DNA of 64,000 nucleotides from a virus, in IMG/VR virus record IMGVR_UViG_3300021091_000014, positions 32,001-96,000 of that record. One strand, written 5' to 3'. Positions within the stretch are counted from its first letter, which is position 1. Each line of letters opens with the position of its first letter. The notes below the pieces were generated by a model, which made no database searches, was not told the origin of the DNA, and saw nothing but the letters and a program-made list of their open reading frames with translations. Position numbers and translations under genes: made by a program. Shown in pieces: positions 1-64,000 of the stretch.

Positions 1-2
1 CA

Positions 3-1150
3 GGTCAAAAAGGTGATACTGGCACCGGCACTAAAGGCGATAAAGGCGAAATAGGTCCTGTTAATTATTTTGACGTATCAACAGACATATTTACTGGCAA
101 TGGATCAGCAAACTCATTTACACTTGCGGTTACTCCTGTAAATGAAGACCACACTGTAGTAGTTATTGATGGTGTTGCTCAACTAAGAACGTCTTATGAT
201 ATTTCCGGCAATACAATAACGTTTGGATCTGCTCCTTCAAATAATGCAGCCATTGAAGTAACTACTTTTACCGGTGGTGCTAAAGGACAAAAAGGGGATA
301 CTGGTTCAAAAGGCGATAAAGGTGAGATAGGCACAAAAGGTGATACCGGTCCTTACAATACATTTGATGTTACATTAGATACATTTACCGGTAATGGATC
401 GGCTACCTCATATACACTAACATCATCACCAATAGATGAAAATCATACGGTAGTAATTATCGAGGGTGTTGCTCAGTTAAAGACTGCTTACTCAGTATCA
501 GGTAATACTTTAACATTTAGTTCAGCGCCGGCCAACGGATATAATATTGAAGTATCTACTTTTGCCGGCGGCGCCAAAGGACAAAAAGGAGATACCGGTA
601 CAGCAGGATCGAAGGGTGATAAAGGCGAGATAGGTACTACCGGTGACAAAGGCGATAAGGGCGATGCTGGGGCGGCAGGGTCAAAAGGTGATACTGGTAC
701 AGCTGGATCAAAAGGCGATAAAGGCGATAAAGGTGAGATAGGTACAAAGGGTGATACCGGCCCATACAATACATTTGATGTTACATTAGACACGTTTACC
801 GGTAATGGATCGGCTACCGCTTACACATTATCAGTAACACCAATTGATGAAGATCATACAATTGTCATTATTGACGGTGTTGCCCAGCTTAAGTCTGCAT
901 ACTCTGTCTCTGGAAACACAATTACATTTTCTGCTGCACCCTCTAACAATGCTGCAATTGATGTAACTGTTATTGCAGGTGGTGCTAAAGGTGATACCGG
1001 CTCGTCAGGATCAAAAGGTGATAAGGGTGAAGTAGGATCTAAAGGTGATAAGGGTGTAGATGGAACTATCGGTGTAAACGGAGACAAAGGCGATAAGGGC
1101 GATGCTGGTGCGGCAGGATCAAAAGGTGATAAGGGTGAAACAGGGCCTAC
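3..1150 (+). repeat. Collagen Gly-X-Y blocks alternating with three copies of a ~70-aa module (FDVxxDxFTGNGS...APxNxxxIxV...GG)
   Basis: Copies at about 64-285, 355-575 and 766-985. DNA at about 310-408 is near-identical to 720-820. Confidence 0.9.
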
Positions 1151-1736
1151 CGGAGGATCAAATACTCAGGTTTTATTTAATGATAGTGGATCAGCTAACA
1201 GTTCGGCAGCACTAACCTTTAATAAAACTTCCAACACTCTTACAGTTGGAGGTAGTATTGTTCCTAATGCCAATATTAGCTACGATCTTGGAACCTCTAA
1301 TATGAGATTTAAAGATCTGTATCTTTCTGGTAATACAATTACTATTGGTGATGTTACTCTAACAGTTGCAAATAACACACTGCAGACAACAGCCAATGGA
1401 GTGTCTACTTCAATAAGTGCCCCACGCTTTATTACAGTGCAGCAAACTGGAGAGGTTGCTGCAACTTATACAGGAACAGCAAGATGGTACCCACCATTTT
1501 CTATAAATATTAGTAAGATTTACGCAAGCATTGGTGTTGCAGCCTCTGGGTCTGTAACATTTGTTTTAAAGAAAAACGGTACTACAGCAGCTACAAGCTC
1601 CATAACTAATGGTAACTATAAAATAACACCGGCGACAGCCAATATATCACTTACGACTAGTGACTATCTGTCGCTTGATATAACCAATGGAACAGCTACT
1701 GACTTAACTGTTTCTCTTCAGTATACGGCTACATAA
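3..1736 (+). CDS. Collagen-repeat tail fibre protein, 5'-truncated (the track ORF 1302..1736 is only its C-terminus)
   Basis: Frame starting at base 3 reads GQKGDTGTGTKGDKGEIGP... and is in frame with 1302. Gly-X-Y blocks alternate with three beta-rich modules, followed by the fibre motif YDLGTSNMRFKDLYLSG. Confidence 0.85.
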   Translation, partial: GQKGDTGTGTKGDKGEIGPVNYFDVSTDIFTGNGSANSFTLAVTPVNEDHTVVVIDGVAQLRTSYDISGNTITFGSAPSNNAAIEVTTFTGGAKGQKGDTGSKGDKGEIGTKGDTGPYNTFDVTLDTFTGNGSATSYTLTSSPIDENHTVVIIEGVAQLKTAYSVSGNTLTFSSAPANGYNIEVSTFAGGAKGQKGDTGTAGSKGDKGEIGTTGDKGDKGDAGAAGSKGDTGTAGSKGDKGDKGEIGTKGDTGPYNTFDVTLDTFTGNGSATAYTLSVTPIDEDHTIVIIDGVAQLKSAYSVSGNTITFSAAPSNNAAIDVTVIAGGAKGDTGSSGSKGDKGEVGSKGDKGVDGTIGVNGDKGDKGDAGAAGSKGDKGETGPTGGSNTQVLFNDSGSANSSAALTFNKTSNTLTVGGSIVPNANISYDLGTSNMRFKDLYLSGNTITIGDVTLTVANNTLQTTANGVSTSISAPRFITVQQTGEVAATYTGTARWYPPFSINISKIYASIGVAASGSVTFVLKKNGTTAATSSITNGNYKITPATANISLTTSDYLSLDITNGTATDLTVSLQYTAT

Positions 1737-16577: not shown

Positions 16578-16847
16578 ATGGTAAGTAAAGTAGATAATAT
16601 CGAGGGTCGAAAGTGGCTTGTGGACATGCTTAAAGCTGGCCCTGCAAGAGTAATATTTACAAAAAAAGACGGTACTGAACGTATTATGAACTGTACTCTT
16701 AATTCAGGCCTTACTGAAGATTTTGAAAAAAAGACTGATCGAGTCAAAGAACCAAATCCTGAGGTATGCCCGGTATATGATTTAGATGCTAAAGGTTGGA
16801 GATCATTTCGATTTGATAGTGTTAAAGCAGTAGAGTTTGATTTATGA
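16578..16847 (+). CDS. SH3/WYL_2-like (DUF2693) phage protein
   Basis: VIFTKKDGTERIMNCTL...VYDLDAKGWRSFR. Confidence 0.75.
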   Translation: MVSKVDNIEGRKWLVDMLKAGPARVIFTKKDGTERIMNCTLNSGLTEDFEKKTDRVKEPNPEVCPVYDLDAKGWRSFRFDSVKAVEFDL

Positions 16848-17260
16848 AAGTAGGAATAACATTTGGTGCGTTTGACTTGTGTCATGCCGGACACAATCTT
16901 ATGTTTGGAGAATGTAAACAGAATTGTGACTATTTAATTGTAGGCCTTCAAGCTGATCCTTCAATTGAAAGAAAAGAAAAGAATAAACCTGTACAGAGCC
17001 TGTTTGAACGCTACGTGCAACTTAATTCATGCAGATACATAAGCGAGGTTATACCTTATGTGTACGAAGCAGAGATCGAAGAAATACTAAGGTCGATTAA
17101 ACCTAATGTTAGGTTTGTAGGTGCTGATTATATTGGTCGTGATTTTACCGCTAAACAATACTGCCTAGATAATAATATAGAATTATACTTTAATAATCGT
17201 GATCACGGATTTAGTACGACTGAGTTGAGGAAACGAATTGAGACTGCTTATAACCGGTAG
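16844..17260 (+). CDS. Cytidylyltransferase-like nucleotidyltransferase (TagD/RfaE-II superfamily)
   Basis: TFGAFDLCHAGH, GADY, RDHGFSTT. Confidence 0.88.
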   Translation: MKVGITFGAFDLCHAGHNLMFGECKQNCDYLIVGLQADPSIERKEKNKPVQSLFERYVQLNSCRYISEVIPYVYEAEIEEILRSIKPNVRFVGADYIGRDFTAKQYCLDNNIELYFNNRDHGFSTTELRKRIETAYNR

Positions 17261-18203
17261 CGCCGGATACATTGGTTCAGTGCTTTGTAAAGTTGCACAA
17301 GAAAAAGGTCATTTTGTACTAGGAACAGACGTTAATATTCCTGCTCATGACTATTACGATGAGTTTGTTCATGATAGCATAGTAAAAAATTCCGTTGCAT
17401 ATGAAGCAAGCAACTTAAAAGTAGACGCAGTATTTCATCTAGCAGCCTCGGCTGACGTTTCTCATAGCACTCGTAGGCCTTCCCTTTACTACAATAATAA
17501 CATCGGAGCCACATCTAAGTTATTAGATAACCTAATAATGATGGGATGGAAGGGACCTGTCATCTTTTCTTCTACCGCTGCTGTATACGGTACAAGAGCT
17601 ACACCCTGCACTGAAGATCTTACACCTACACCTTTTACGGCATATGGTAGAAGCAAACTTATGTGTGAGCATCTTCTAAAAGATGTTTGGAATTGCAATC
17701 AAATACCTTCAGTGTCGTTTAGATATTTTAATGTAGCCGGAGCATATACTGACGTTGGTGATCACTTAGAATCAGGTCACGTAATACAAAAACTATGCAA
17801 TAGCGCATCTACAAAAGAGCAATTTAATATATTTGGTAATAGATATCAAACAATTGACGGTACATGCGTTAGAGATTATATTCACGTATTAGATGTATGT
17901 GAAGCACAATTCACTGCCTTAAATTATTTAAACAGTAACCCCGGTGCGCATATATTTAATTTAGGAACAAAAAGTGGTATATCTGTTAAGCAACTATATG
18001 AAAAATTCTGTAATATTACTGGTGAAAAAATAAAAGCAGTTTATGATATTGCAAGAGAAGGGGACCCAGATTTTTTAGTAGCAGATCCCACGAAGTTTAT
18101 TAACGCAACTGACTTTAATTATAGTCATAGTAATATAGAAAAAATAATTGATAGTGCTTGGAAATGGTACAGTAATCACAGGAGAAATAATAATGCCGTT
18201 TGA
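17238..18203 (+). CDS. galE: UDP-glucose 4-epimerase-like NAD-dependent epimerase
   Basis: TGSAGYIG, FSSTAAVYG, YGRSK, RYFNVAG, DGTCVRDYIHV. Confidence 0.88.
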   Translation: MRLLITGSAGYIGSVLCKVAQEKGHFVLGTDVNIPAHDYYDEFVHDSIVKNSVAYEASNLKVDAVFHLAASADVSHSTRRPSLYYNNNIGATSKLLDNLIMMGWKGPVIFSSTAAVYGTRATPCTEDLTPTPFTAYGRSKLMCEHLLKDVWNCNQIPSVSFRYFNVAGAYTDVGDHLESGHVIQKLCNSASTKEQFNIFGNRYQTIDGTCVRDYIHVLDVCEAQFTALNYLNSNPGAHIFNLGTKSGISVKQLYEKFCNITGEKIKAVYDIAREGDPDFLVADPTKFINATDFNYSHSNIEKIIDSAWKWYSNHRRNNNAV

Positions 18204-20174: not shown

Positions 20175-20772
20175 CGCTCTTGCTCTTACCGATTTTAAAC
20201 AGGATTACTTAAATCAACTTAGTAGTGGACTTGATAGTATTGATCTAAACGCTCTTGACTTGTTCTATAATGAAATTGTTAATACAGTTAAAAATGACAA
20301 AACAATATTTGTCTGTGGTAACGGAGGTTCTGCTGCTATTGCCGAACACCTCTCCTGTGATCATTCGAAAGGGGTAGCCTCTAACACTCGTCTAATACCG
20401 AGAGTTATTTCGTTAAATAGTAATATGTCTTTACTTACCGCTACCGCTAACGATTACGGATACGATAAAGTTTTTTCCACTCAACTAGTACTACAAGGTA
20501 GAAGTGGTGATTTATTAATAGCTATTTCCAGTAGCGGCAACTCTCGAAATATTATAGAAGCAATATCTACTGCGAAAGCTTTAGGAATAAAAACTTCTTC
20601 CCTCACCGGATTTTACGGCGGGGAGACGAAAAATAAAAGTGATATTAATATTCACGTACCAATTCATAATTACGGAATTGTAGAGGATTGTCATCAGATT
20701 ATCATGCATATCGTAGCTCAGTACATACGCACGATACATACTGAGGTAGATATAAAAAGCGTAAAGCTATAA
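20164..20772 (+). CDS. gmhA: Phosphoheptose (sedoheptulose-7-P) isomerase
   Basis: CGNGGSAA.AEH, TATANDYGY, ISSSGNS.NI, EDCH. Confidence 0.9.
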   Translation: MLINALALTDFKQDYLNQLSSGLDSIDLNALDLFYNEIVNTVKNDKTIFVCGNGGSAAIAEHLSCDHSKGVASNTRLIPRVISLNSNMSLLTATANDYGYDKVFSTQLVLQGRSGDLLIAISSSGNSRNIIEAISTAKALGIKTSSLTGFYGGETKNKSDINIHVPIHNYGIVEDCHQIIMHIVAQYIRTIHTEVDIKSVKL

Positions 20773-40848: not shown

Positions 40849-41651
40849 CGACTAAAAATTTAGGTCAAGAAGGTATTGTTTGGTTTGTAGGCAAAGTTGA
40901 GGACAGACAAGATCCTTTAATGCTTGGAAGGGTAAAAGTCCGCGCTTACCATTTTCACACTGATAATAAATCGCTGATGCCTACTGACGAATTGCCTTGG
41001 GCATTAATTATGATGCCTCCTAATAATCCAAGTCACGATAAAGTTGGACTATCACCAAACGGGCTAACCGTAGGATCTACGGTTATAGGATTTTTTATGG
41101 ATGGGCATGATGCCAATCAGCCTGTAGTAATGGGTACCATTCATGGTATTCCAGATAATGATAAGTCAAAGCATGATGTGGCTGAACCTGCTCGTGAGAA
41201 TAACAATATAAGTAAAGAATACGATAGTAAAGAACCTAAGTCTGCCTATAAGGCGAAATACCCATATAATAAAGTTTTGAGAACTGAAGGCGGGCATGTA
41301 GTAGAAATAGATGACACACCAGGAGAAGAACGGCTACACATCTATCATAAATCTGGAACCTATACTGAAATTGATAAAGATGGTCGTAAAGTAGAAAAGG
41401 TAGTAGATAACGGCTTTGAAATAATCCTTAAAAATCAAACAGTACATATTAAAGGCAACTATGACGTGTTTGTAGATGGTGTTACAACGTTTACTTGCGA
41501 ACAGGTAAATATGACAGGTAATTTAAGAGTAGATAAAGATGTAAGTGTTGGCAAGGACGTCTTTACTGACGTTGGTGTTAGCCTTAACAAGCATACCCAT
41601 ACAGATACTCCTGGACTTGGTGCCGGAGTCACAACTCCTCCTAACAGATAA
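40845..41651 (+). CDS. gp5: Baseplate central spike (short gp5: OB fold + beta-helix, no lysozyme)
   Basis: WFVG.VEDR.DP..LGRVKVR, LPWA, GFFMDG, YPYN, GH..E.DDTPG.ER; C-terminal KHTH. Confidence 0.88.
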   Translation: MTTKNLGQEGIVWFVGKVEDRQDPLMLGRVKVRAYHFHTDNKSLMPTDELPWALIMMPPNNPSHDKVGLSPNGLTVGSTVIGFFMDGHDANQPVVMGTIHGIPDNDKSKHDVAEPARENNNISKEYDSKEPKSAYKAKYPYNKVLRTEGGHVVEIDDTPGEERLHIYHKSGTYTEIDKDGRKVEKVVDNGFEIILKNQTVHIKGNYDVFVDGVTTFTCEQVNMTGNLRVDKDVSVGKDVFTDVGVSLNKHTHTDTPGLGAGVTTPPNR

Positions 41652-42598
41652 TGGCAAATTATATAAACGAAAGTGGATTTGAGCTAGGCATTAATGGGCT
41701 TAGAATTGTTGATGACTCCGGAACAGTTAAATATAAACTGCCGATTAATGATGGAACTAACGGTCAAATTATAAAGACTGACGGGTCCGGTCAGCTTTCT
41801 TTTATTACACCTCAATCCCTAGTTGGATCAAAAGGTGAAAAAGGTGATAATGGTGTAAAGGGTGATCAAGGTACTGCAGCTTCCAAAGGGGATAAAGGTG
41901 ATAAAGGAGATAAAGGTGAAAAGGGAGCAGACGGCATTGGTACTAATGGGGCGCAAGGTGCCCAAGGCGCGCAAGGACCTCAAGGCGCAAAAGGAGAAAG
42001 AGTAAGCAGTGCATCCTATTCTGACAGCACTAATGTTATTACATTTACTAATTCTGACTCTTCTGTATTTACAGTATCAGGAGTAAAAGGACAGAAAGGT
42101 GATACTGGATCAAAAGGAGATAAAGGTGACAGTGGTTCAAAAGGAGATACAGGCCCACAAGGATCTCAAGGCGCTTTCTCAACTAATTCGGACGGACAAA
42201 TAAACTCTCTCGGTGTAGGAACAGCAGCATCTACCGTAACTGGTCAAATTAGAGCTACTAATAGCATTACAGCTTTTTATTCTGACGTTAGATTAAAAGA
42301 AAATATTCAGGAAATAGAAAACGCACTAGACAAAATTGAACAACTAAGAGGGGTTTTTTATAATCAAAATGTATTAGCTGAGAAGTTTGGTTACAATGAT
42401 TATAAAAGGCAAGTAGGTGTAATCGCACAGGATGTACAGAAAATATTGCCCGAGGCTGTAACAGGAGCTCCTTTTGATATTGATAAAGACGGCAATAGTA
42501 TTTCAGGTGAAAATTATTTAACCGTGTACTATGAAAAAATAATCCCACTTCTTATTCAGTGCATAAAAGAACTTAAACAATTAATAGACAATAGGTAA
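41651..42598 (+). CDS. Collagen-repeat fibre with a C-terminal peptidase S74 intramolecular chaperone
   Basis: G-X-Y blocks; SDVRLKENI, GVIAQDV...PEAV, LLIQ.IKEL. Confidence 0.85.
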   Translation: MANYINESGFELGINGLRIVDDSGTVKYKLPINDGTNGQIIKTDGSGQLSFITPQSLVGSKGEKGDNGVKGDQGTAASKGDKGDKGDKGEKGADGIGTNGAQGAQGAQGPQGAKGERVSSASYSDSTNVITFTNSDSSVFTVSGVKGQKGDTGSKGDKGDSGSKGDTGPQGSQGAFSTNSDGQINSLGVGTAASTVTGQIRATNSITAFYSDVRLKENIQEIENALDKIEQLRGVFYNQNVLAEKFGYNDYKRQVGVIAQDVQKILPEAVTGAPFDIDKDGNSISGENYLTVYYEKIIPLLIQCIKELKQLIDNR

Positions 42599-53400: not shown

Positions 53401-56400
53401 CTACCCTAGCCTCACATCTAGGGCAGCAATGCTTAATAAGAGACCAGATCTTAAGAGTATGATCACCCCACTTCAGACAAGAAGATATACAATGGGGGAT
53501 ATAAGAGACTTAGAAAATAGACTTCAAAGACTAGAGTATTATACATTACTTAATACACTTGAGACTGACGCAGCTACTTTAGCAATTCCAAGCTCAGCTT
53601 GTAATACAGTAGAAGTATTTAAAAACGGGTTTTTTGTTGATTCATTCGATAACTACGTTATTTCTAATATTAATGATGGCGAGTATAAAGCTTTAGTAGA
53701 CACGACGAGATCACGTTTAGTACCACAAGAAGAAATTTTCTCTATTGATTTAAAATTTGATGCTGTTAATAGCGTAAACGCTACGAGAAATGGCGACCTA
53801 GTAACATTAAATTACACCCAAAAAGAACTGCTTAGTCAACCTCTTGCTAATAAAGAAAGAACGCTTGTTGAAGGATTTTGGTCATTTAGAGGCAAGATGA
53901 CTGTTATACCTAGAGTAGATAACTTCTTTGATAGGGAAGTTACCGCTACATCTTCAGTAGAAATAAACATTGCCGATCCTATTAACGCTTTAGTTAATGC
54001 GCAAAATGAAATAAATTCTAGAGTGGCAACGGCTACTTCATTAATTAATACTGTAAATCAAACTTCATCTGCTCAAAGAATGGAAGGTAATTTTTTAAGA
54101 ACAGATTTTTCTGAGAATATTACTGAAACATTTGAAGATGAGTTCACTACAATAACAGTACCTCCCGTACAAACTTCTATAACGCAGATTAATAACCTAC
54201 TTACAAGCGTTCATATTAATCCATATATGCGCGGTCAAAAAATTGGTCTTTATGTTGTTGGTTTAAGACCGGGCGCCCAGCACTATCTATTTTTTGACGG
54301 TGTTGATTTAACGAATGAAGCTGTATCGGCTACTTTAAATACGTTTAGTAACGCCACAATTAATGATTTTGTTCCAAGATACAATAAGGGCTCTTCACCT
54401 GGACTTTTTGCCGATGATAAAGGTAACTTAGGTATTGTTGTATGGATGCCCGCTGATACATTTACCACAGGCGAAAAAGAATTTTTAGTTGTAGACGTCA
54501 GTACTTTAGATTCTGAACAATCAGCAACTTCTAAAGCTACAGGTAAGTTTGCTTCTTTTACAATGTCAGGAGAAGCTACCAATATTACTATTGGAACAAA
54601 ATCATTTGATCTTTCAGAATCTTCTTTTGATACCGATACATTTACACAAACAAGATCTGTTACAACTAATAGGGAATGGACAGAGTTTGAATTTATACCT
54701 CCCAGGGACCCTCTCGCTCAGACATTTTTAGTACAAAAGCAAGCAGGTAGATCTCAATTTGTTATGATTTCTTCTATAGATGTATTTTTCAAGCAAAAAG
54801 ATTCTACAAAAGGAGTCACTTTAGAAATTAGAGAGGTTGATGAAGGAGGATATCCAACTAATCAGGTTTTACCTTTCTCAAGTGTATATAAAACTTCTGC
54901 TGAGGTAAGTACTAGCGCCACTGCTTCCTCTGCTACAACATTTACTTTTCCAGCGCTTGTTACTTTAAAGACTGGCAGAGAATATGCAATTACACTTACA
55001 CCAGATAGCAACTCACCAGAGTATAGAGTGTGGACTGCAATTGCTGGTGTTCCCGATGTTACTAATACTAACCTCATTACTAATTTAACCTGGGGACTTG
55101 GAACACTGTTCTTCTCAACAAGCGGAAGAGCATTTACCGCAGTTCAAAATGAAGACTTAAAATTTACAGTAAGATATGCTGAATTTAATCCAACCACAGG
55201 TACCGTTGAATTAACTAACGGGGATATGGAATTTTTAACAATAAGTGATGTAAGCGGATCTTTTGTTGACGGTGAAGATGTAGCCCAGCTCGGCACATCC
55301 TACCTTAATGTTAACCTTACTACAAATACAACTAGCTACGTTATAAACACTTCTACAAGTCTTACATCTACCCTGGCAGCTAATGATTATGTTTTAGTTG
55401 TATATGGCACTAACAAGCAAGTAGGAACTGCTAACGTTAAAGCTGTTAGCACTACAGTAAGTAATGCCGGCTCAACATCAACCGGATTTACAACAAAGTA
55501 CGCTGTTGGTGATTATATTAATATTGGTACAGAAATAAGATTGGTAACTGCAGTTGCTAGTGATACAAGCCTAACCGTTGACTCAGCATTTAATGCAACT
55601 ATTACAGATAGCAACCATTATTCTGTAGATGAAAAATTTGATATTTTTAGAATAATAAGTGCTAACTCAACTTCTATTACAGTTAATAGACCGCCCGCAT
55701 ATGTTGCAAACACAACAGCTGGAGCAAGTATTCAAAAAGCCGTACACGGTGTTGTCAATTATTATAGTCCAAGCAAAAATACAATTTATTTATCCGACAG
55801 CAATTCAACTAATAGTACATTTAAAGTTGCTCCTAATACCGCTACGTATTTTGCTTATTTGATCGGCGACAGATCTGATGCAGTTGCTAAAGTAACAAGT
55901 ATTAATAATCTTACCGCTACAGGATATACACCTTTAATAAACATATTACAGCTACCAAGCACAACGGTTAGTTTAAGTGCAGAATTAGCAAAAACAGCTG
56001 GAGGTACAGACTCTGCATCTTATGTCTTTGGCGGTAAAAACACATTAAGATTTAACGATACAGCTCTTATTAAAAGTAAGAGTAATGAAATTTCTGGAGT
56101 TGGTATTACTAAGTCATTTAAAGCTACTATTAATTTTGATACTGATAAAGCAGATATTTCTCCAGTACTTGACGTTAATCCTATTAGTATAGCTATTCAA
56201 AAATATAATATTAATAATGATTCTACAAATGAAAACACTCGCTACGGAAGCGCAAGCTCAAAGTATATTTCTAAGAGACTTGAATTAGCAGAAGATCAAG
56301 ACGCAGAAGATATCAAAGTATTTTTAAAAGCTTACAGACCTAGCGGAACTGATATTGAGGTTTATGCTAAGATATTAAACTCCGGAGATAGTGAGTCATT

Positions 56401-56929
56401 TGATGATAAAGACTGGTCAATGTTGCAGATGATAACTTCTTCTACTCTTTACAGCTCTTCTGTAAATGAAAATGATTTAAGAGAGTATGAGTTTACATTT
56501 AGAAGAACCCCAACAACAACAGGTATAAGCGGTAAAGTTACTACTGCGGCTTCAACAACGCTTGAAGGATTTGGTACTACGTTTACTACAGACTTTACCA
56601 CGAGCGATTTAATAAAAATTGTTTACTCTAACACTGAAACAGATTTTGAAATTATTCCTATCGCATCAATCACGGATAATGATACATTGGTTCTCGCTTT
56701 TGCACCATCTGCTTCTAAAATTGGTCCCGGCTACTCTATAGAAAAAGTAACTAAACCAAAAGAAGCTTATAAAAATAATCAAAATGGAAATGTTGTAAGA
56801 TATTTTGATAGCAGCAGAGCCGCACACGACACCTATAAGTTTATGGCAATTAAAATTGTTCTTAAAGCGACAGGCAACTATTTGGTTCCATCCGTTGATG
56901 ATGTAAGAGCTATAGCGATTTCAGTATGA
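50426..56929 (+). CDS. Large virion structural protein (DUF4815/VrlC-like)
   Basis: NVSPYFDDF...FHRVLFRPG.AVQARELTQLQ, APGA.RLK, RRTFEESGNY, YTM.DI..LE.R...LEYY, FKNGFFVD.F, DPLAQTF. Confidence 0.85.
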   Translation: MPLDSNLNVSPYFDDFDEQKNFHRVLFRPGVAVQARELTQLQTILQNQIERFGDNIYRTGTIIKGCALNPDYRYNYIKILDNQADGQPVSMALYSNSLIIQESSNLRAFAVNYKTGLESQDPDLNTLYIKYQNTGTGGEKTFSASQVVKVFNRNRTIEDINVVLGGTLYSNNDTVVFSGGSGAGASAVLTTDAGGKIVDVSVQSKGSGYTTTPNVSITTSTGSGANIAALNYIAELTVAAVTNAVGIGAAVKTSEGIIYQKGNFIRVDEEEIVIEKYSNLPNNKVVGFRSAETFVNSAIDTSLLDVATGTPNYAAPGANRLKLTPQLVVMSRSEAKSNNEFLALLEFENGRVIKDRTYTQFNSLNREISRRTFEESGNYVINPMPLDTEDITPANTTHFNLVTGGGTSYVNGERIQILNYVKTPIRKADDSANVANQTINTQYGSYILVKQLLGYFEIKEGTTLNLRETAATDVSDNAGSTPTAPGNLVGTARARALEYHSGTIGTPDCVYRLYIFDIRMATGFPFNRIRSVSVGSTAVADLVLENSQAILKDVENDILVFKTGTFAVKELNSEEFIFRTSTNSTFTLSGDQTITFSGGNTVPYGTGSLTDIQINDFIVVPSATFRYSANNTGTVDMTNGEANVLGTSTTFTSTYKVGDFIQIGQSGKLDRIVTIFSDVKLAVANTTAASYTANAHYTAFPRGVPIDFNRDSRDISIPSTTSITVDIGTSINVAASFVMYHDLENFEPAVRTKTVSNPVYVKVSSSRVTATPNGPWCLGLPDVISLEGVHVGTSSTYSDTTTNYAEQFELITGQKDNFYGLAYLRKKPGSTLSLSGSNNLTVKLKVFTHSSGKYFSTESYPVDDSTDPLPSNKIRTESIPVFVSPTSGEQFPLRDSVDFRPIASNTAVYSSTVGSASIDPDATETIPAGEKFFPSPSRSFECNIEAYMSRVDRIVLGSDGNIRIIEGLPAFNPVAPPKENTSMDLGLIRIMPYPSLTSRAAMLNKRPDLKSMITPLQTRRYTMGDIRDLENRLQRLEYYTLLNTLETDAATLAIPSSACNTVEVFKNGFFVDSFDNYVISNINDGEYKALVDTTRSRLVPQEEIFSIDLKFDAVNSVNATRNGDLVTLNYTQKELLSQPLANKERTLVEGFWSFRGKMTVIPRVDNFFDREVTATSSVEINIADPINALVNAQNEINSRVATATSLINTVNQTSSAQRMEGNFLRTDFSENITETFEDEFTTITVPPVQTSITQINNLLTSVHINPYMRGQKIGLYVVGLRPGAQHYLFFDGVDLTNEAVSATLNTFSNATINDFVPRYNKGSSPGLFADDKGNLGIVVWMPADTFTTGEKEFLVVDVSTLDSEQSATSKATGKFASFTMSGEATNITIGTKSFDLSESSFDTDTFTQTRSVTTNREWTEFEFIPPRDPLAQTFLVQKQAGRSQFVMISSIDVFFKQKDSTKGVTLEIREVDEGGYPTNQVLPFSSVYKTSAEVSTSATASSATTFTFPALVTLKTGREYAITLTPDSNSPEYRVWTAIAGVPDVTNTNLITNLTWGLGTLFFSTSGRAFTAVQNEDLKFTVRYAEFNPTTGTVELTNGDMEFLTISDVSGSFVDGEDVAQLGTSYLNVNLTTNTTSYVINTSTSLTSTLAANDYVLVVYGTNKQVGTANVKAVSTTVSNAGSTSTGFTTKYAVGDYINIGTEIRLVTAVASDTSLTVDSAFNATITDSNHYSVDEKFDIFRIISANSTSITVNRPPAYVANTTAGASIQKAVHGVVNYYSPSKNTIYLSDSNSTNSTFKVAPNTATYFAYLIGDRSDAVAKVTSINNLTATGYTPLINILQLPSTTVSLSAELAKTAGGTDSASYVFGGKNTLRFNDTALIKSKSNEISGVGITKSFKATINFDTDKADISPVLDVNPISIAIQKYNINNDSTNENTRYGSASSKYISKRLELAEDQDAEDIKVFLKAYRPSGTDIEVYAKILNSGDSESFDDKDWSMLQMITSSTLYSSSVNENDLREYEFTFRRTPTTTGISGKVTTAASTTLEGFGTTFTTDFTTSDLIKIVYSNTETDFEIIPIASITDNDTLVLAFAPSASKIGPGYSIEKVTKPKEAYKNNQNGNVVRYFDSSRAAHDTYKFMAIKIVLKATGNYLVPSVDDVRAIAISV

Positions 56930-57970: not shown

Positions 57971-59596
57971 ATGCCAGCTAATACCCAATATTTCAGAGTA
58001 GAGTACGGATTAGATGTTAATCTAGATGCCGTTATAGGAAAAGAACTATCTGTAACTAATACAGCTTCTTTTGGTAATAATGTAACTATTCAAGGCGATC
58101 TAGTAGTTAATGGTCAAACAACCTTTAACGACTCCCAATTAGTTGAACTTGGTACCGGACAGGTAGTTTTTGTTTCAGGTGCTCAGGGAGCTCCATCTAC
58201 AGATGCAAGATTAACTGTCAACAGAGGTGCAAGCGCTAATGTAGAAATAAGATGGAATGAGACTCTTGACACATGGCAATTTACAAATAATGGAACTAAT
58301 TACTACCCATTAAAATCTTACTCTGATTTAACTTATCAGTTTAGCACCCTTAACTCAACCAATGTTGATCCAGGATCCGGACTATTAAGATTTAATAACG
58401 GCACCCCCTCTCTAGTTACTCAAATTTCTATTGATAATACTGAGCTTGGAGGAACTGATGTTTCTGCATATATTGATTCTTTAGATGACAGCAACAATAC
58501 AGTAAAAGGATTTTTACTTTTTAGAAGCTCTGTTAATCAAGATCGATTTATTGTATATGAACTTAATTCAATAACTACCCAGACAGGGTATCGTCAGTTT
58601 TCAGTAACACATGTTTCTGGTAGCACATTGTTTACTAATGATGATGTTTTATTTTTAAGCTTTCTTCGTTCAGGAGATAAAGGTGATAAAGGTGAAAAGG
58701 GTGAAAAAGGTCAGAAAGGTGAAAGGGTAAGCTCGGGTAATTTTGATAGCGGCACCAACTCTTTACTATTTACTAATTCTGACGGATCTACTTTTACAGT
58801 GGCAGGTATAAAAGGTGATAAGGGTTCTTCAGGAGAAAAAGGTAATAAAGGCGATACAGGTGCTCAAGGCATTGGGGGTCCAGGAGCACAAGGCGATTTA
58901 GGTCCCGGAGGGCCTCAAGGTAATAAAGGCGATACAGGTGCTAAAGGTGAACCAGGAGGTCCAGGTGGTCCAGGTGTTGCAGGGCCTCAAGGGAATTTGG
59001 GCGCTCAAGGTCTTAAGGGAGATGTCGGCCCTCAAGGTTCTAAGGGAGATAAGGGAGATAAAGGTGCACAAGGCGGACCAGGTCCTGCAGGTCCTCAGGG
59101 ATCTGGCGGTGATAAAGGTAATAACGGTGCTCAAGGGCAACCCGGCCCGGCCGGTACTGTAATTGACTCATCTAGTGATTTAAATATTAGATCTTTAAGA
59201 GTTAATACAGGTGCAGTTTCAATCAATGCAGGAGAAATATTAGCAGCTGGTGATATTACAGCATTCTATTCAGACTTAAGACTTAAAAAGAATATTGAAG
59301 AAATAAAAGATGCCACAAAAAAATTATTAATGCTAACCGGAGTTTATTACTCCCAGAACGAATTAGCAGAAAAGTTTGGTTATAACGACTACAGAAGACA
59401 ACTTGGACTAATAGCTCAAGAAGTACAAAAAATATGCCCTGAAGCTGTTAGACTAGCACCATTTGATTTAGATGAAAACGGAATAAGCAAATCCGGAGAA
59501 AACTATCTTACTATTAAATACGAGAGATTGATTCCTCTTCTCATTCAGTCTATAAAAGAAATTGATAAAAGGGTTAGTGATTTAGAAAATAAGTGA
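57971..59596 (+). CDS. Collagen-repeat tail fibre with a C-terminal S74 chaperone
   Basis: VNRG....I.WNE..D.W; long G-X-Y region at about 58670-59155; SDLRLKKNI, GLIAQEV. Confidence 0.88.
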   Translation: MPANTQYFRVEYGLDVNLDAVIGKELSVTNTASFGNNVTIQGDLVVNGQTTFNDSQLVELGTGQVVFVSGAQGAPSTDARLTVNRGASANVEIRWNETLDTWQFTNNGTNYYPLKSYSDLTYQFSTLNSTNVDPGSGLLRFNNGTPSLVTQISIDNTELGGTDVSAYIDSLDDSNNTVKGFLLFRSSVNQDRFIVYELNSITTQTGYRQFSVTHVSGSTLFTNDDVLFLSFLRSGDKGDKGEKGEKGQKGERVSSGNFDSGTNSLLFTNSDGSTFTVAGIKGDKGSSGEKGNKGDTGAQGIGGPGAQGDLGPGGPQGNKGDTGAKGEPGGPGGPGVAGPQGNLGAQGLKGDVGPQGSKGDKGDKGAQGGPGPAGPQGSGGDKGNNGAQGQPGPAGTVIDSSSDLNIRSLRVNTGAVSINAGEILAAGDITAFYSDLRLKKNIEEIKDATKKLLMLTGVYYSQNELAEKFGYNDYRRQLGLIAQEVQKICPEAVRLAPFDLDENGISKSGENYLTIKYERLIPLLIQSIKEIDKRVSDLENK

Positions 59597-59605
59597 AAGG
59601 TTATT

Positions 59606-60175
59606 ATGAGAAGTTTTTGGGCAGTATGGACCGGTGTTGTTAGTGAGTTGGCTTGTAATAGAATTATAGAAAGAGGACTGGCGTTAAACCATCAAAAAGC
59701 TATTGTTGGATATGATGATAATGCTAGAACTTCTGATAACAGGTCAACTACTATAGGATGGTTTGATCGTAAAATAGATAAAGACATTGCTGATCTTATT
59801 ACTATGTACGCAACTGAAGCAAACAGAGAATTTTTTGATTTTGATATCTCTCATGGCGTTTTTGAAATGCAGTTTAGCATCTATAAAACTGAAGAAAAAG
59901 GCCGATTTGGATGGCATAGTGATACTCAGTATAAGACAAATATAATGACAGATAGAAAACTGTCTTTTGTTTTACAGTTGTCCGAGCCATCAGATTACGA
60001 AGGTGGTGAATTTGAATTTAAAGTGCCCGATGGTTCAACTTTAGACAGAAACAATTTTTTACCTAAAGGTTCAGTGCTAGTTTTTCCATCTATATTTGAA
60101 CATAGAGTAACAGAAATAACTAAAGGTACAAGATATTCTTTAGTGTCCTGGATTGAAGGGCCTAAGTGGAGATAG
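59606..60175 (+). CDS. 2OG-Fe(II) oxygenase (prolyl-4-hydroxylase/PKHD-like)
   Basis: WHSD (HxD), RKLS, YEGGE, FPS...HRV..ITKGTRYSLV.W. Confidence 0.9.
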   Translation: MRSFWAVWTGVVSELACNRIIERGLALNHQKAIVGYDDNARTSDNRSTTIGWFDRKIDKDIADLITMYATEANREFFDFDISHGVFEMQFSIYKTEEKGRFGWHSDTQYKTNIMTDRKLSFVLQLSEPSDYEGGEFEFKVPDGSTLDRNNFLPKGSVLVFPSIFEHRVTEITKGTRYSLVSWIEGPKWR

Positions 60176-60188
60176 TTTTTTTTAATAT

Positions 60189-60196
60189 TATAAATA
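60189..60196 (+). promoter_or_regulatory. T4-type late promoter TATAAATA
   Basis: Exact consensus in an AT-rich intergenic region before structural genes. Confidence 0.7.
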
Positions 60197-60219
60197 CTAA
60201 TAATAATATTTAAGCGGCT

Positions 60220-60543
60220 ATGGCTACTAAAGTAAACTTTTTAATAGATCAAGGTACCACGTTTGAAACGTCGATTAACCTAAATGATGATGACGGTAAC
60301 CCTATTGATTTAACCGGGTTCACTGTTGCCGGTCAGTTGAGAAAGCATTATACATCATCTAATTATATTCAGTTTAATGCTAATTTAGCGCTCGGTGAAT
60401 TAAACCTAGCATTATCCGCTAATACAACTGATGCGTTAACTCCTGGTAGATATGTTTATGATGTAGAATTAACAGATACTAATGGATTAATAACAAGGTT
60501 GTTAGAAGGTATTATTACTGTAACTCCGCAGGTAACGAGATAG
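60220..60543 (+). CDS. Small Ig-like virion protein (BppU N-terminal-like adaptor)
   Basis: IDQG.TF, DLTG, L.L.A..T..L..GRYVYDV, R.LEG...V.P. Confidence 0.7.
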   Translation: MATKVNFLIDQGTTFETSINLNDDDGNPIDLTGFTVAGQLRKHYTSSNYIQFNANLALGELNLALSANTTDALTPGRYVYDVELTDTNGLITRLLEGIITVTPQVTR

Positions 60544-60547
60544 AACA

Positions 60548-60811
60548 ATGCCAATTAATCAGTCAGCTCTTTCGTTAAACGTAAGGTTAAATCTTGCTAA
60601 CACAAAAATTACTACTACCCCTGCGCAGCCAGTAACGTTAAAATCGCAATTTAAAACAATAAGTACACTTAATGAATTGACAGACGTTGTGGAAACGGCG
60701 CCAGAATCTGGCCAGACGTTAGTTTACGATGCTACAGTTGATAAATATATAGTAAAGAAACTTACAACAGCAGACTTAGACTTAACGTCCTTGGACGGGG
60801 GAACCTTTTAA
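60548..60811 (+). CDS. Small fibre-associated protein ending LDGGTF
   Basis: LNELTDV...GQTLVYD fibre motif. Confidence 0.65.
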   Translation: MPINQSALSLNVRLNLANTKITTTPAQPVTLKSQFKTISTLNELTDVVETAPESGQTLVYDATVDKYIVKKLTTADLDLTSLDGGTF

Positions 60812-62824
60812 ATGTCAGAGACCATACTCCAAATTAAACGCAGTACCACAACATCAGTACCTGCAAATCTACAACCCGGAGAATTAGCATATACCAGTAA
60901 CGGACAAGTTCTATTTGTTGGAAGTCCGGAAGGGTCTAATACTGCTAACGTTATAGCTATTGCCGGGGAAAGATTTCCCGGAGTCTTAACTGCTAATCAA
61001 GCGTTAGTCTCTAATACCTCAGCCTGGATTGACAATATTCAAACAGCCAAGTTAATACTTGGACCTGTAGGAACATCAACAAACGTAACCTCTATTGTAA
61101 CGGATAGCTCTCTAGCAAGCGTTTCAAATAATACATTAGCAACTGCCTGGGCTGTTAAAACCTATATTGATACACAGGCCGGCTCTTCTACACTCGGCGG
61201 TCTTTCTGATGTAACAATAACCTCTGCTGGCAATAATCAAATATTAGTATACGATGCAATTAGTGGCCAGTGGGAAAATCATTCAATTTCTGGAACTGCA
61301 AATGAAGTAGAAGTTACATTTGATGGACAAGACATAACAGTTGGACTGCCTGATGCTGTAACAGTAACATCATCTATTACTGTTGGTACCGTTGGAATAA
61401 ATGGATCATCTTTCCATGTTGGTAACAGCACTGTTAACACATTTATCAATTCTACAGCGGTAGCAATTGACGGGGTATTCTCAGCTGGCAATACAACAAT
61501 TAATGGATCAGCAACCATTACTGGTGAGTTGATTTTAGGTTCTAACCTCAGCGTTAATACTACTCATATCTCTGTCGGTAACAGCACGGTTAATACAACC
61601 ATTAACGCTGTTAGTATTGATACAGATGGTATTTTAAATGTAGAAGGCACTGCAAGACTCGGTAACACAACGATTGTAGGCTGGGCTAATGTTTCAGATA
61701 CAATAGCTGTAGGTGCAAACGTTGTTGTTAATACAGCAGGAATTTCAATTGGAAATTCTACAGTTAACGCACAAATTTATTCTGCTAACGTTAATTTAAA
61801 CGGTACGCGTTTACACGTTGGTGATGCAACAAACAATACTGTAATTACTGGGGTAGGAATAACTGCCACCGGCAACGTTAATATCACCGGATCAGCTAAC
61901 GTCGGATCTCATATTCACGTTGGTTCGAACCTACAGATTAATACGTCGACAATTACTTTAGGCAACTCTTCAGTTAACACGACGATTACATCCTCGTTTA
62001 TAACTGTCAACACAGTATCTACTTCTAACGTATATGTTACCGGTAATGCTCAAATAACTGGCGATTTAAGAGCAGATAATGATGTAAGACTAGGTTCAAA
62101 CCATACAGATGCAATTTCAATTCTTGGAGCTGTTAATACTAGTGTTGTTCCATTCAGTAATACCACATACGACTTAGGTAGTGCAACTCAGCAATGGGCT
62201 AATGTATACGGTAATAATATTATCGGGATGTATGGCACGTTCCATAACGATGTAAGCATTAGTGGAAACCTTACAGTCACTGGTTCTTTAGTAACAATTA
62301 ACGTTTCAACATTATCAATCGTTGACCCGTTAATTCAACTTGCATCTAATAATACTGTAAGTGATGCTATCGACATTGGTTTCTTTGGCTCGTTTAACGT
62401 AGGTGGTGGCAATCACGAACACGCCGGTTTATTCCGTGATGCTACTGACGGCAAATTTAAATTATTTACTAATTTAGAGCCATCGCCAACTACCACAGTT
62501 GACACATCAAATAACACCTACACTGTTGCTACGTTAAATGCATTCTTAGAGTCAGGTGCATTTATATCTAATAGCTCAGGTGTTACAATTACTGCAAACT
62601 CTTCCTCTGCAGTTAATATAACAGCTAACTCATTAAGTTTAAGCACCGCGCTAACAGTTCCAAATGGCGGTACAGGTCAAGCAACATTTACTAACAATGC
62701 TGTTCTATTAGGCAATACAGCCGGAGCATTGAAATCTGTTTCAAGCTCAACACAAGGGCACGTATTACAGATTAATGGCTCAGGCGTTCCTACATTCGCA
62801 ATGCTTGACGGAGGCACGTTCTGA
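60812..62824 (+). CDS. Tail fibre protein
   Basis: N-terminal IKRS...P..L..GELAY; LSDV...NQILVYD; repeated VGNSTVN; C-terminal LDGGTF. Confidence 0.75.
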   Translation: MSETILQIKRSTTTSVPANLQPGELAYTSNGQVLFVGSPEGSNTANVIAIAGERFPGVLTANQALVSNTSAWIDNIQTAKLILGPVGTSTNVTSIVTDSSLASVSNNTLATAWAVKTYIDTQAGSSTLGGLSDVTITSAGNNQILVYDAISGQWENHSISGTANEVEVTFDGQDITVGLPDAVTVTSSITVGTVGINGSSFHVGNSTVNTFINSTAVAIDGVFSAGNTTINGSATITGELILGSNLSVNTTHISVGNSTVNTTINAVSIDTDGILNVEGTARLGNTTIVGWANVSDTIAVGANVVVNTAGISIGNSTVNAQIYSANVNLNGTRLHVGDATNNTVITGVGITATGNVNITGSANVGSHIHVGSNLQINTSTITLGNSSVNTTITSSFITVNTVSTSNVYVTGNAQITGDLRADNDVRLGSNHTDAISILGAVNTSVVPFSNTTYDLGSATQQWANVYGNNIIGMYGTFHNDVSISGNLTVTGSLVTINVSTLSIVDPLIQLASNNTVSDAIDIGFFGSFNVGGGNHEHAGLFRDATDGKFKLFTNLEPSPTTTVDTSNNTYTVATLNAFLESGAFISNSSGVTITANSSSAVNITANSLSLSTALTVPNGGTGQATFTNNAVLLGNTAGALKSVSSSTQGHVLQINGSGVPTFAMLDGGTF

Positions 62825-62851
62825 TATTATAATTGAGTTTTAAGGATTGTA

Positions 62852-63052
62852 ATGGAAACTGAATTTATTAATGCTTTTATTGATAAGCAAAGAAAACTAA
62901 TAGAAGAGTTAGTTTCAAAAAATCTACTAGCAGAGGCAAAGATCACTATCTTAGAAAAAAAGGTAGCTGATCTTTCCTCCCAGGTAGAATCTCTATCATC
63001 AAAATCCAATAAAAAAGAGAATGTGAAGCATGACGAAAATACTGGTGATTAA
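62852..63052 (+). CDS. Small coiled-coil protein (possible fibre chaperone)
   Basis: AAGGA RBS, heptad pattern. Confidence 0.6.
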   Translation: METEFINAFIDKQRKLIEELVSKNLLAEAKITILEKKVADLSSQVESLSSKSNKKENVKHDENTGD

Positions 63053-64000
63053 TTTATCATCCAGACCTGATAGGCTTTCTTTTATGAATCAACAGCTTTC
63101 AGGTTTAGAGTGGGAGAGAATTGATGCTCTTAATGGATATAATCTAGGACTTAATGATTTTAAATCTCTCGGGTTTACACCCTATAGCCAATGGACTGAC
63201 CCACTTTTAGGTCGCAACCATACTAACACAGATATTGCTGCAATGATCTCCCATTACCGGGCATGGGAAAAATGTATCGAATATGACTGCCCGGTTTTAA
63301 TTTTAGAAGATGATGCTGAAAAAATTAATAAATTAGATTTAAATGAAATAGAAAATTTGCTTCAGACATATGATGTAGTGTATCTTGATCATAGAGAAAT
63401 GGTAGAAGAAAAAACTCAGTATATTGATAAAAACTTTTTTAAGCCATACTACCCTTACTGGAATAGCGCATATGCTATTTCACCAGCAACAGCTAGAAAA
63501 ATAGTAGAACTATCTAACTATAAAAATAATTTAATACCTGTAGATGAATTTTTTCCTAGCTTGTTTCTTGTTGATTATAATGAATACTGCCTATCAAAAA
63601 ATAAAAATGTAATTAATAATTTTAATAGTTTACAACGCATTTTTACCGAGCATTTTAGCTTATCACCAATAGCTTATAAGAATAAAGTATTTAAACAAAA
63701 ACCACGCAGTGAGCTTGGTTCTGATATTGAAAGAGGTATTTTAATGAACACAATTGAAAACTTGCACCTACTTACTGTTGCAACTGATATTACAAAACTA
63801 GGATACCTAAACAAGTCTGTTAATGAAATTGGAAATCAATTTGTTAATTTAGGACAAAATAAAATGTGGACCGGTGGTGACATGAGTAAGCCCGGCGGAG
63901 GAATGAAATTAAACCTGGTAAAAAATTATATTAAATTCCTGTCTGATAACGATATAATTTTATTTGTTGATGGATATGATGTCTTTATTAATGATGATAG
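63030..64000 (+). CDS. GT25 (COLGALT-like) glycosyltransferase fused to a PLOD/lysyl-hydroxylase-type GT domain, 3'-truncated (not in track)
   Basis: Open from ATG 63030 to the window end. First domain: VINLSSRPDR, DALNG, WTDPLLGR, SHYRAW, LILEDD, YPYWNSAYAIS, IPVDEFFP. Second domain: LLTVATD, NLG...WTGGDM..PGGGMK, IILFVDGYDV. Confidence 0.85.
   Translation, partial: MTKILVINLSSRPDRLSFMNQQLSGLEWERIDALNGYNLGLNDFKSLGFTPYSQWTDPLLGRNHTNTDIAAMISHYRAWEKCIEYDCPVLILEDDAEKINKLDLNEIENLLQTYDVVYLDHREMVEEKTQYIDKNFFKPYYPYWNSAYAISPATARKIVELSNYKNNLIPVDEFFPSLFLVDYNEYCLSKNKNVINNFNSLQRIFTEHFSLSPIAYKNKVFKQKPRSELGSDIERGILMNTIENLHLLTVATDITKLGYLNKSVNEIGNQFVNLGQNKMWTGGDMSKPGGGMKLNLVKNYIKFLSDNDIILFVDGYDVFINDD

Follow-up and report, generated by a model that had tools for sequence, protein, structure and literature searches.

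The 64,000-nt stretch of viral DNA analysed here (the window) comes from the IMG/VR record IMGVR_UViG_3300021091_000014 and corresponds to bases 2463-66462 of a 74.5-kb viral contig with a CheckV completeness of approximately 44%. Close to its 3ʹ end, among genes for collagen-like fibres, an open reading frame (ORF) begins that resembles the enzymes with which animals hydroxylate and glycosylate collagen lysines. This locus raises the question of whether a tailed phage carries a collagen-lysine modification enzyme of its own and, if so, what that enzyme acts on. The domain homology and architecture of the gene product, termed the fusion here, are secure: a single 670-aa chain joins two glycosyltransferase (GT) domains to a lysyl hydroxylase (LH)-type domain. 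Judged from sequence comparison and gene context, the phage fusion probably hydroxylates lysines at the Y position of Gly-X-Y triplets in the phage's own collagen-like fibres and then glycosylates the resulting hydroxylysine (Hyl).

A three-domain fusion protein

The fusion gene and its domains are arranged as follows; positions beyond 64,000 are extrapolated in window numbering.

63030..64000 in the window (323 codons), on to extrapolated 65042 (contig 65492-67504; L002:5493-7505), + strand: fusion gene, 670 aa, ATG at 63030
63030..63734, + strand: domain 1, residues 1-235, GT25 of the COLGALT1 catalytic (GT2) type (PF01755), with an E93-D94-D95 Mn site
63756..64000, on to extrapolated 64451 (L002:6219-6914), + strand: domain 2, residues 243-474, PLOD/LH3-type GT-A domain (PF25342)
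L002:6978-7505, wholly beyond the window, + strand: domain 3, residues ~496-670, lysyl-hydroxylase-type 2-oxoglutarate (2OG)/Fe(II) oxygenase, placed by alignment to LH3 and L230

An original prediction, made from the letters of the window alone, had noticed an ORF running from 63030 past the window end, with GT25 motifs in the order seen in the C-terminal domain of COLGALT at residues 1-235 and, directly behind them, a GT domain like that at the N-terminus of PLOD/LH3. It had also placed any 2OG/Fe(II) hydroxylase domain at the C-terminus, beyond the window. Each of these points is now borne out. The ORF opens with the ATG at 63030, shows 323 aa without a stop in the window and reaches its stop codon approximately 1 kb beyond the window end on the extended contig. 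Homologues align from residue 1-3, which indicates that the start codon at 63030 is right, and since the first GT-A β-strand of the structural model starts at residue 3, there is no signal peptide.

Domain 1 matches the Pfam family Glyco_transf_25 (PF01755) at residues 1-174 in the window part (E 1.3e-17; 64.8 bits against a cutoff of 24) and again in the full-length fusion (E 1e-16). COLGALT1, found by phmmer at 2e-15, is the best counterpart of this domain in sequence, profile and fold. Domain 2 matches GT_PLOD (PF25342) at 243-474 with E 1.4e-57 in the full protein, the 243-322 segment within the window alone giving E 4e-14, and its fold matches the GT domain of LH3. Domain 3, present once the contig is extended, carries an HHD...HEG pattern aligned to the LH3 iron ligands; when excised, it matches 2OG-FeII_Oxy_3 (PF13640) at 583-661 with 27.8 bits (cutoff 27). 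Only about 20 residues separate the GT domain (to 474) from the LH domain (from ~496), so the accessory (AC) domain of LH3 is absent; the linker at 476-482 has low confidence in the model. The reading of TDIAA in place of the usual GEIGC motif was likewise correct (NTDIAAMISH). The family consensus at this site is xxEIAC, so the window protein departs mildly from its own family.

Closest known enzymes

Searches by sequence, profile and fold all lead to animal or mimivirus collagen-lysine enzymes as top matches. Against the Protein Data Bank (PDB), the single sequence matches LH3 at 2e-38, with the GT and LH domains both aligned, mimivirus R699 at 1e-27, the C-terminal catalytic half of COLGALT1 at 6e-15 and the LH domain of mimivirus L230 at 2e-7. 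A profile of 37 family members, which share 41-78% identity with the window protein, matches LH3 at 2e-71, R699 at 5e-51, COLGALT1 at 3e-38 and L230 at 2e-16, followed by R655 (6e-13) and a bacterial GT25 (8e-12); at E≤1e-3, this profile finds no prolyl hydroxylase or any further match in the PDB. Modelled with AlphaFold from the family alignment, the fusion reaches a predicted local distance difference test score (pLDDT) of 90.5 and a predicted template modelling score (pTM) of 0.48, indicating that the domains are well defined individually and their mutual arrangement is not. With this model, Foldseek finds the LH3 GT domain (6wfv) at a template modelling (TM) score of 0.87, a root mean square deviation (rmsd) of 2.2 Å and 31% identity, R699 at 8e-18 and COLGALT1 (9evj) at 7e-15, while domain 3 superimposes on the LH domain of L230 with TM 0.75 and rmsd 2.2 Å. 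Weaker structural matches include a bacterial beta-1,4-galactosyltransferase (1e-6) and prolyl hydroxylases (~1e-7). The comparison with COLGALT1, LH3 and mimivirus enzymes that had been proposed as a check thus favours LH3, COLGALT1 and L230/R699 over bacterial GT25 enzymes of the lipopolysaccharide (LPS) type.

The catalytic residues point the same way. The catalytic GT2 domain of COLGALT1 binds Mn via an unusual Glu435-Asp436-Asp437 motif (PMC12003778); because 'LILEDD' of the phage protein aligns with 'LVFEDD' of COLGALT1, E93, D94 and D95, invariant in the 37 members, sit on this motif. In LH3, residues E141, W145, N165, D190, D191 and Q192 are essential for glucosyltransferase (Glc-T) activity by mutagenesis (PMC10342707, Table 1). 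These align with E343, W347, N367, D391, D392 and Q393 of the fusion, all invariant in the family, as are D314, D317, H454 and N456; the conserved FVDxYD and HGNG motifs align with the LH3 metal site. In domain 3, H595-H-D597 and H644 align with the 'HHD' and 'HEG' of LH3, and H595, D597 and H644 are invariant. That the active-site residues of all three domains stay invariant at 41-78% identity indicates selection on catalysis. Behind the GT25 core lies a near-invariant D232-I233 within 'GSDIE'; the COLGALT1 alignment ends at residue 180, before the flexible C-terminal loop whose catalytic Asp570 closes over UDP-Gal in COLGALT1.

The human LH3/PLOD3-COLGALT1 complex (8zgc, 6fxk, 9evj; PMC11897130, PMC12003778, PMC10342707) contains all three catalytic domain types found in the fusion. 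Both systems have the EDD Mn motif, the DxxD/His site with the gating Trp, Glu141 and poly-Asp/Gln residues, and the HxD...H triad. The substrate motif of LH3/COLGALT1 is Lys at Y of Gly-X-Y and is presumed to be the same for the fusion, whose substrates would be phage fibres. In humans, however, the activities are divided between two proteins (738 + 622 aa) that need to form a complex and reside in the endoplasmic reticulum, whereas the phage has one 670-aa chain in the order GT25-GT-LH, without a signal peptide and predicted to be cytoplasmic. The phage chain also lacks the LH3 accessory domain (~250 aa) and the non-catalytic N-terminal GT1 domain of COLGALT1, a binder of Ca/UDP-Gal through which COLGALT1 also dimerises and contacts LH3: the phage GT25 begins at residue 1-3 and finds its counterpart only in the C-terminal half of COLGALT1 (~302-509). 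Identity to the human proteins is ~23-31%, the 2OG-binding Arg is replaced by Lys, and Val80 of LH3 is replaced by Met. Without the AC domain and with Lys for Arg, the fusion falls outside PLOD in the strict sense, and the missing GT1 domain places it outside strict COLGALT; it is best seen as a fused version of the known system for modifying collagen lysines.

Mimivirus has the same three domain families in L230 (LH plus Hyl glucosyltransferase), R699 (a Gal-Hyl glucosyltransferase) and R655 (GT25-like), and these enzymes modify collagen-like proteins that mimivirus itself encodes (6ax6, 9dyt, 9crz; PMC9546862, PMC12279948). There, the functions are spread over three proteins of a giant virus of eukaryotes; in tailed phages they are fused and linked to tail fibres.

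Collagen-like fibres of the phage

Five collagen-like proteins are encoded on the contig.

3ʹ part at 1..1736, start 927 nt before the window, + strand: collagen-like protein, 887 aa; 112 triplets, 53 Lys at Y, 0 at X
41651..42598, + strand: collagen + S74-chaperone fibre, 315 aa, adjoining a gp5-like baseplate hub gene; 29 triplets, 13 Lys at Y
57971..59596, + strand: collagen + Peptidase_S74 fibre, 541 aa; 45 triplets, 16 Lys and 5 Pro at Y
extrapolated 65069-68473 (L002:7532-10936), + strand: collagen-like fibre, 1134 aa; 186 triplets, 86 Lys at Y, 0 at X
extrapolated 68488-71628 (L002:10951-14091), + strand: fibre, 1046 aa; two collagen segments and Ig-like domains

Three collagen genes had been recognised in the window, all described as rich in Gly-X-Lys. 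Pfam confirms those at 41651-42598 and 57971-59596, while the one given as 3..1736 is only the 3ʹ part of the 887-aa ORF. Their enrichment is as described, with Lys at Y in 36-47% of triplets and none at X. Across the five proteins, 399 Gly-X-Y triplets hold 176 Lys at Y and 0 at X. The 1134-aa fibre gene (Pfam Collagen, 1.4e-78) starts just 27 nt downstream of the fusion. The fibre genes match tail-fibre PHROGs, and the Peptidase_S74 chaperone ends of the 315-aa and 541-aa proteins imply self-cleaving, trimerising fibres.

Linkage of the fusion to collagen genes

The proximity of fusion and collagen genes recurs across the family. In 80 viral loci of fusion relatives, with a collagen-like ORF defined by at least 6 consecutive Gly-X-Y triplets, such an ORF is present in 60 of 80 loci, in 48 of the 55 whose flank spans 8 kb or more and in 23 of the 23 where it spans 15 kb or more; loci without one are mostly short of upstream flank. 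The expected co-occurrence of homologues with collagen genes is therefore seen in every well-flanked locus. The linked ORFs almost always share the strand of the fusion and lie 14-2500 bp from it. In Synechococcus phage S-CAM9, the tail-fibre gene just upstream of the fusion encodes 59 triplets with 22 Lys at Y, and in Roseobacter phage CRP-6, the corresponding gene encodes 99 triplets with 26 Lys at Y. The linkage is also seen on contigs of metagenome-assembled genomes (MAGs). As base rates, 6 of 72 Acidimicrobiia loci encoding an LH-like protein alone have weak runs of 6-9 triplets, and at most 1 of 18 distant phage loci anchored on a DUF4815 baseplate gene has a collagen-like ORF; in this second control, the 10-kb flank ends just short of the fusion in close relatives, leaving only the 18 distant loci usable.

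Lysine position in the triplets

The Y position is the only one modified by lysyl hydroxylases (PMC13382579). Pooled collagens of the fusion loci contain 1883 Lys at Y and 0 at X, with Arg divided almost evenly (60 at X, 64 at Y), whereas control phage collagens without the enzyme contain 711 Lys at Y and 62 at X. After removal of duplicates, the X/Y counts are 0/1450 for fusion loci against 61/694 for controls (Fisher p = 8e-30). Since the controls were picked by a pattern that places Lys at Y, the contrast is conservative. Per locus, any Lys at X occurs in 0 of 58 fusion loci and 19 of 51 control loci, and the rule of no Lys at X holds in each clade, in the MAG contigs, in CRP-6 and in the bacterium Kaistia.

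Family distribution and annotation

Fusion relatives are widespread. They form 435 protein clusters, almost all of 620-690 aa and identical in domain composition, and are encoded on 477 IMG/VR contigs, a number obtained with an alignment-based query (a single-protein query gave none). Deposited phage records contribute 11 matches, among them Synechococcus phages S-PRM1, S-CAM9 and S-8S53/55/56, Roseobacter phage CRP-6 and one marine single-virus genome. The phage described here recurs in lake-water metagenomes, so the family is aquatic and not only marine. Deposited homologues are annotated 'hypothetical' or '2OG-Fe(II) oxygenase'; cluster names go no further than 'GR25 family glycosyltransferase involved in LPS biosynthesis' (JGI); PHROGs places the fusion in phrog_61, '2OG-Fe(II) oxygenase', in its auxiliary metabolic gene/host takeover category; and NCBIfam has no model for it. 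Hundreds of aquatic phages thus bear the fusion unrecognised in annotation. No prior description of phage PLOD/COLGALT or of hydroxylysine in phage fibres was found in an incomplete coverage of the literature. Iyer, Abhiman, de Souza and Aravind (2010) described many phage and bacterial 2OG dioxygenases, some predicted to modify collagen-like and tail-collar proteins (PMC2938197). Their families comprise beta-hydroxylase, phytanoyl-CoA hydroxylase and JmjC types, with no PLOD/COLGALT fusion or hydroxylysine glycosylation, and cyanophage oxygenase arrays were taken as secondary-metabolite genes.

Prokaryote genome records also contain full three-domain copies, on MAG contigs resembling phage DNA. 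The cultured alphaproteobacterium Kaistia terrae DSM 21341 (NZ_JAPKNH010000001.1, L236:7935-9269) has a chromosomal 444-aa protein with GT_PLOD and 2OG oxygenase domains and no GT25, 46% identical to the phage protein. Around it lie genes for an autotransporter, LtrA, RgpF, a methyltransferase and multiple GTs, and ~7 kb upstream there is a collagen-like ORF; the protein could be a tractable bacterial counterpart. Many genomes of Acidimicrobiia/Ilumatobacteraceae (L239-L312, e.g. L250:7917-8519) encode a stand-alone LH-like protein of ~200 aa; at ~40% identity, these are the closest relatives of the phage LH domain found in prokaryote genomes.

Some family members are longer (P0095, P0097 and P0098), one of 875 aa carrying an added Methyltransf_24 domain and others reaching ~950 aa, which suggests further modification steps in some phages. 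On the contig of the closest relative, IMGVR_UViG_3300008116_000125 (P0035/L204), the baseplate protein is 81% identical; the fusion-related product is only 377 aa, 84% identical, and spans the GT_PLOD/LH part. The fusion gene of this contig may be split, frameshifted or mis-called.

Proposed function and alternatives

In the function proposed here, the fusion would serve as a cytoplasmic single-chain enzyme with three activities that matures the collagen-like tail or baseplate fibres of the phage. The C-terminal 2OG/Fe(II) domain would first convert Y-position Lys (X-Lys-Gly sites) of unfolded chains into hydroxylysine. The GT25 domain and the LH3-type GT domain would then add the first and the second hexose from UDP-sugars, which by analogy with animals would be Gal followed by Glc, and the modified fibres would trimerise and enter the virion. 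A small oxygenase of the prolyl 4-hydroxylase (P4H)/PKHD type, often encoded immediately upstream, probably adds further hydroxylation on the same fibres. The analysis itself shows domain homology, conserved catalytic residues, linkage to collagen genes and Lys at Y only; activities, substrate, step order and sugar identity are what we infer. Mimivirus L230 hydroxylates the collagen L71 when the two are co-expressed in E. coli (PMC9546862), so such chemistry can work in a bacterial cytoplasm.

Several observations weigh against this proposal. The PF13640 match on the whole fusion is 25.1 bits, just below the gathering cutoff of 27. Val80 of LH3, which is required for Glc-T activity, is Met285 in the fusion. 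LH3 binds the 2OG C5 carboxylate through an Arg (Arg729) 10 residues past the distal His; at this place the fusion has Lys654, which is invariant across the 37 members and different from PLODs. By analogy with P4H-type enzymes, which use Lys, 2OG binding by Lys654 is plausibly functional. The 80 loci come from related phages, so both the co-occurrence counts and the Fisher p overstate independence, and one clade has Gln-dominated collagens with few Lys. Pairs of an acidic residue at X and Lys at Y also stabilise triple helices free of hydroxyproline; a Lys-rich collagen alone is therefore no evidence of modification. Moreover, Gly-X-Lys collagens are not specific to phages with the fusion: GDKGDKGDT-type collagen DNA occurs on at least 118 viral contigs, and even a partial fusion relative is found in only 1 of 80 such loci, which rules out the converse notion that a Gly-X-Lys collagen implies the fusion enzyme. 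Lastly, the Acidimicrobiia LH-like domains stand alone without collagen neighbours, so the tie between this hydroxylase type and collagen is not universal.

The alternative that survives best keeps the fibres as target and changes the chemistry: Glc might be placed directly on Hyl, other sugars or a single sugar only might be used, or one GT domain might act on another residue such as the abundant Thr at Y. It finds encouragement in mimivirus L230, which puts Glc, not Gal, on Hyl (PMC9546862, citing Luther 2011), a point that also bears against the proposed order of sugars; in the replacement of LH3 Val80 by Met; in Thr at Y, which equals Lys in abundance in the linked collagens (1882 vs 1883); and in the GmhA, HddA-like kinase, RfaE-II-like transferase and GT4 that the phage encodes besides GalE. 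However, the GT25 domain is far nearer to COLGALT1 than to other GT25 proteins, the LH3 residues essential for Glc-T are all conserved in the fusion, and mimivirus R699 is a genuine Gal-Hyl glucosyltransferase (PMC9546862). We therefore regard a change of chemistry as unlikely.

Less probable still is that the fusion is an auxiliary or host-takeover gene acting on non-collagen targets (host LPS, surface glycans or other proteins), its linkage to collagen genes merely reflecting a variable fibre region. The LPS-biosynthesis GR25 name given to relatives (JGI), the PHROGs category, the two-domain Kaistia terrae relative among surface-polysaccharide genes and the collagen-free Acidimicrobiia LH-like domains would all suit this explanation. 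It has to contend with the best matches of all three domains to collagen-lysine enzymes, with collagen linkage in 23/23 well-flanked loci across unrelated phage types (T4-like, CRP-6), with a complete absence of Lys at X that is confined to linked collagens and with the collagen-like ORF that the Kaistia locus, too, has ~7 kb upstream. That at least one domain is a silent scaffold, like COLGALT1 GT1 or the LH3 AC domain, leaving a partial pathway or mainly a fibre-folding chaperone, is very improbable: animal relatives do include degenerate GT-like domains (PMC12003778), the GT domains of LH1/LH2 are poorly active owing to single substitutions (PMC10342707) and Val80 is replaced by Met, but in each of the three domains, the residues for metal, donor and acceptor do not vary among members at 41-78% identity to the window protein.

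Gene neighbourhood

The phage is T4-like, with baseplate genes of gp5-, gp25-, gp6-, gp7-, gp8-, gp26- and gp48-type, and also encodes a ribonucleotide reductase. The region around the fusion begins with a DUF4815 baseplate protein, two small ORFs, the 541-aa collagen + S74 fibre and a 189-aa 2OG oxygenase. It continues with a fibre-assembly-like gene, an 87-aa ORF, a 670-aa repeat fibre, a 66-aa ORF and the fusion, and ends, after the 27-nt gap, with the 1134-aa collagen fibre, the 1046-aa collagen/Ig fibre and a gp13-like neck gene that follows the fibre block. Further features of the window are as follows.

16844-20772: nucleotide-sugar cluster (RfaE-domain-II-like adenylyltransferase, GalE, GT4, HddA-like heptose-7-phosphate kinase, GmhA)
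17238..18203, + strand: GalE-type UDP-glucose 4-epimerase (TIGR01179 equivalog, 270 bits against a cutoff of 262.3)
50426-56929, after gp8: DUF4815 baseplate/fibre protein, 2167 aa
59606..60175, + strand: small 2OG/Fe(II) oxygenase, 189 aa (2OG-FeII_Oxy_3, E 1.7e-14)
60220..62824, + strand: fibre-module genes between oxygenase and fusion, encoding 107-aa, 87-aa and 670-aa proteins

The 107-aa protein resembles a tail-fibre assembly protein. The 87-aa ORF (60548-60811) and the 670-aa repeat fibre (60812-62824) both have C-termini reading ...LDGGTF, and an N-terminal 'KRS...GELA' segment is common to the 670-aa fibre and the 1134-aa collagen protein. These ends and segments may represent a shared attachment or assembly signal. 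Close relatives of the 2167-aa DUF4815 protein all come from contigs that also bear the fusion gene.

The late-promoter motif TATAAATA occurs at 60189, 24 nt before the gene at 60220, the first in the co-directional block to which the fusion belongs; no copy immediately precedes the fusion gene itself. Overall, the motif is not enriched, with 6 found against ~8 expected. Four of the six + strand motifs lie 22-68 nt upstream of gene starts, at contig positions 1493, 32975, 62651 and 74102 (window -969, 30513, 60189 and 71640), the genes behind them being the 887-aa collagen gene, g45, the fibre-assembly-like gene and the gp13-like gene. Despite the lack of enrichment, this placement fits T4-type late promoters.

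Small oxygenase and nucleotide-sugar genes

A 2OG-Fe(II) oxygenase had been read immediately behind the collagen gene at 57971..59596, and the 2OG-FeII_Oxy_3 match at 59606-60175 agrees. Homologues of this 189-aa protein occur in 35 of the 80 loci, either immediately before the fusion, at -3 to -9 bp, or separated from it by one similar gene; S-CAM9 has two small-oxygenase genes at that spot. The model (pLDDT 90) and its HxD...H...R motifs place the protein in the P4H/PKHD clade. The best sequence matches are of PKHD/PiuC type (1e-6), NCBIfam matches fall below cutoff, and in Foldseek, PiuC-type enzymes, the collagen P4H of PBCV-1, PHDs and the LH domain of LH3 all score 1e-8 to 1e-6. PBCV-1 vCPH (5c5t), PiuC (9qn4) and Sbal_3634 (3dkq) share its fold and HxD...H...R motifs at TM about 0.5-0.68, and none stands out. 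The candidate assignment as a prolyl hydroxylase is thus not established, and the protein is assignable to the P4H/PKHD clade only.

The GalE at 17238 had been put forward as the supplier of UDP-Gal. The enzyme itself is confirmed by TIGR01179, but it lies 45 kb away, within a cluster that is a predicted phage-encoded heptose-nucleotide pathway plus epimerase. GalE is a possible source of UDP-Gal, and its connection to the fusion is one that we infer.

Significance

Glycosylation of hydroxylysine in collagen is considered a trait of animals, mimivirus being the sole viral exception; if the fusion acts as proposed, the trait would extend to phages and to virion fibres. The fusion also lends independent support to functional coupling within the human LH3/COLGALT1 complex. 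It is the smallest known package of all three predicted activities and is suited to the bacterial cytoplasm; glycosylated recombinant collagen in E. coli is an unmet need (PMC9546862). Since carriers such as S-CAM9, S-PRM1, S-8S53/55/56 and CRP-6 are in culture, the idea is directly testable. A wider view, which we put forward tentatively and with the balance of judgement leaning somewhat against it, is that the tail fibres of many aquatic phages, cultured cyanophages and a roseophage among them, bear animal-type glycosylated hydroxylysine made by a minimal LH + GalT + GlcT chain. On this view, the fusion would act as a 'Rosetta stone' for the LH3-COLGALT1 complex of animals and would hint at an ancient exchange of the module for glycosylating collagen lysines between phages or bacteria on one side and eukaryotes with their giant viruses on the other; the strict lack of Lys at X would mean that the fibres are selected so that every helical Lys is modifiable. 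Should the proposed function hold, some of the many phage genes that are labelled '2OG-Fe(II) oxygenase' and counted as auxiliary metabolic genes would instead encode virion-maturation enzymes.

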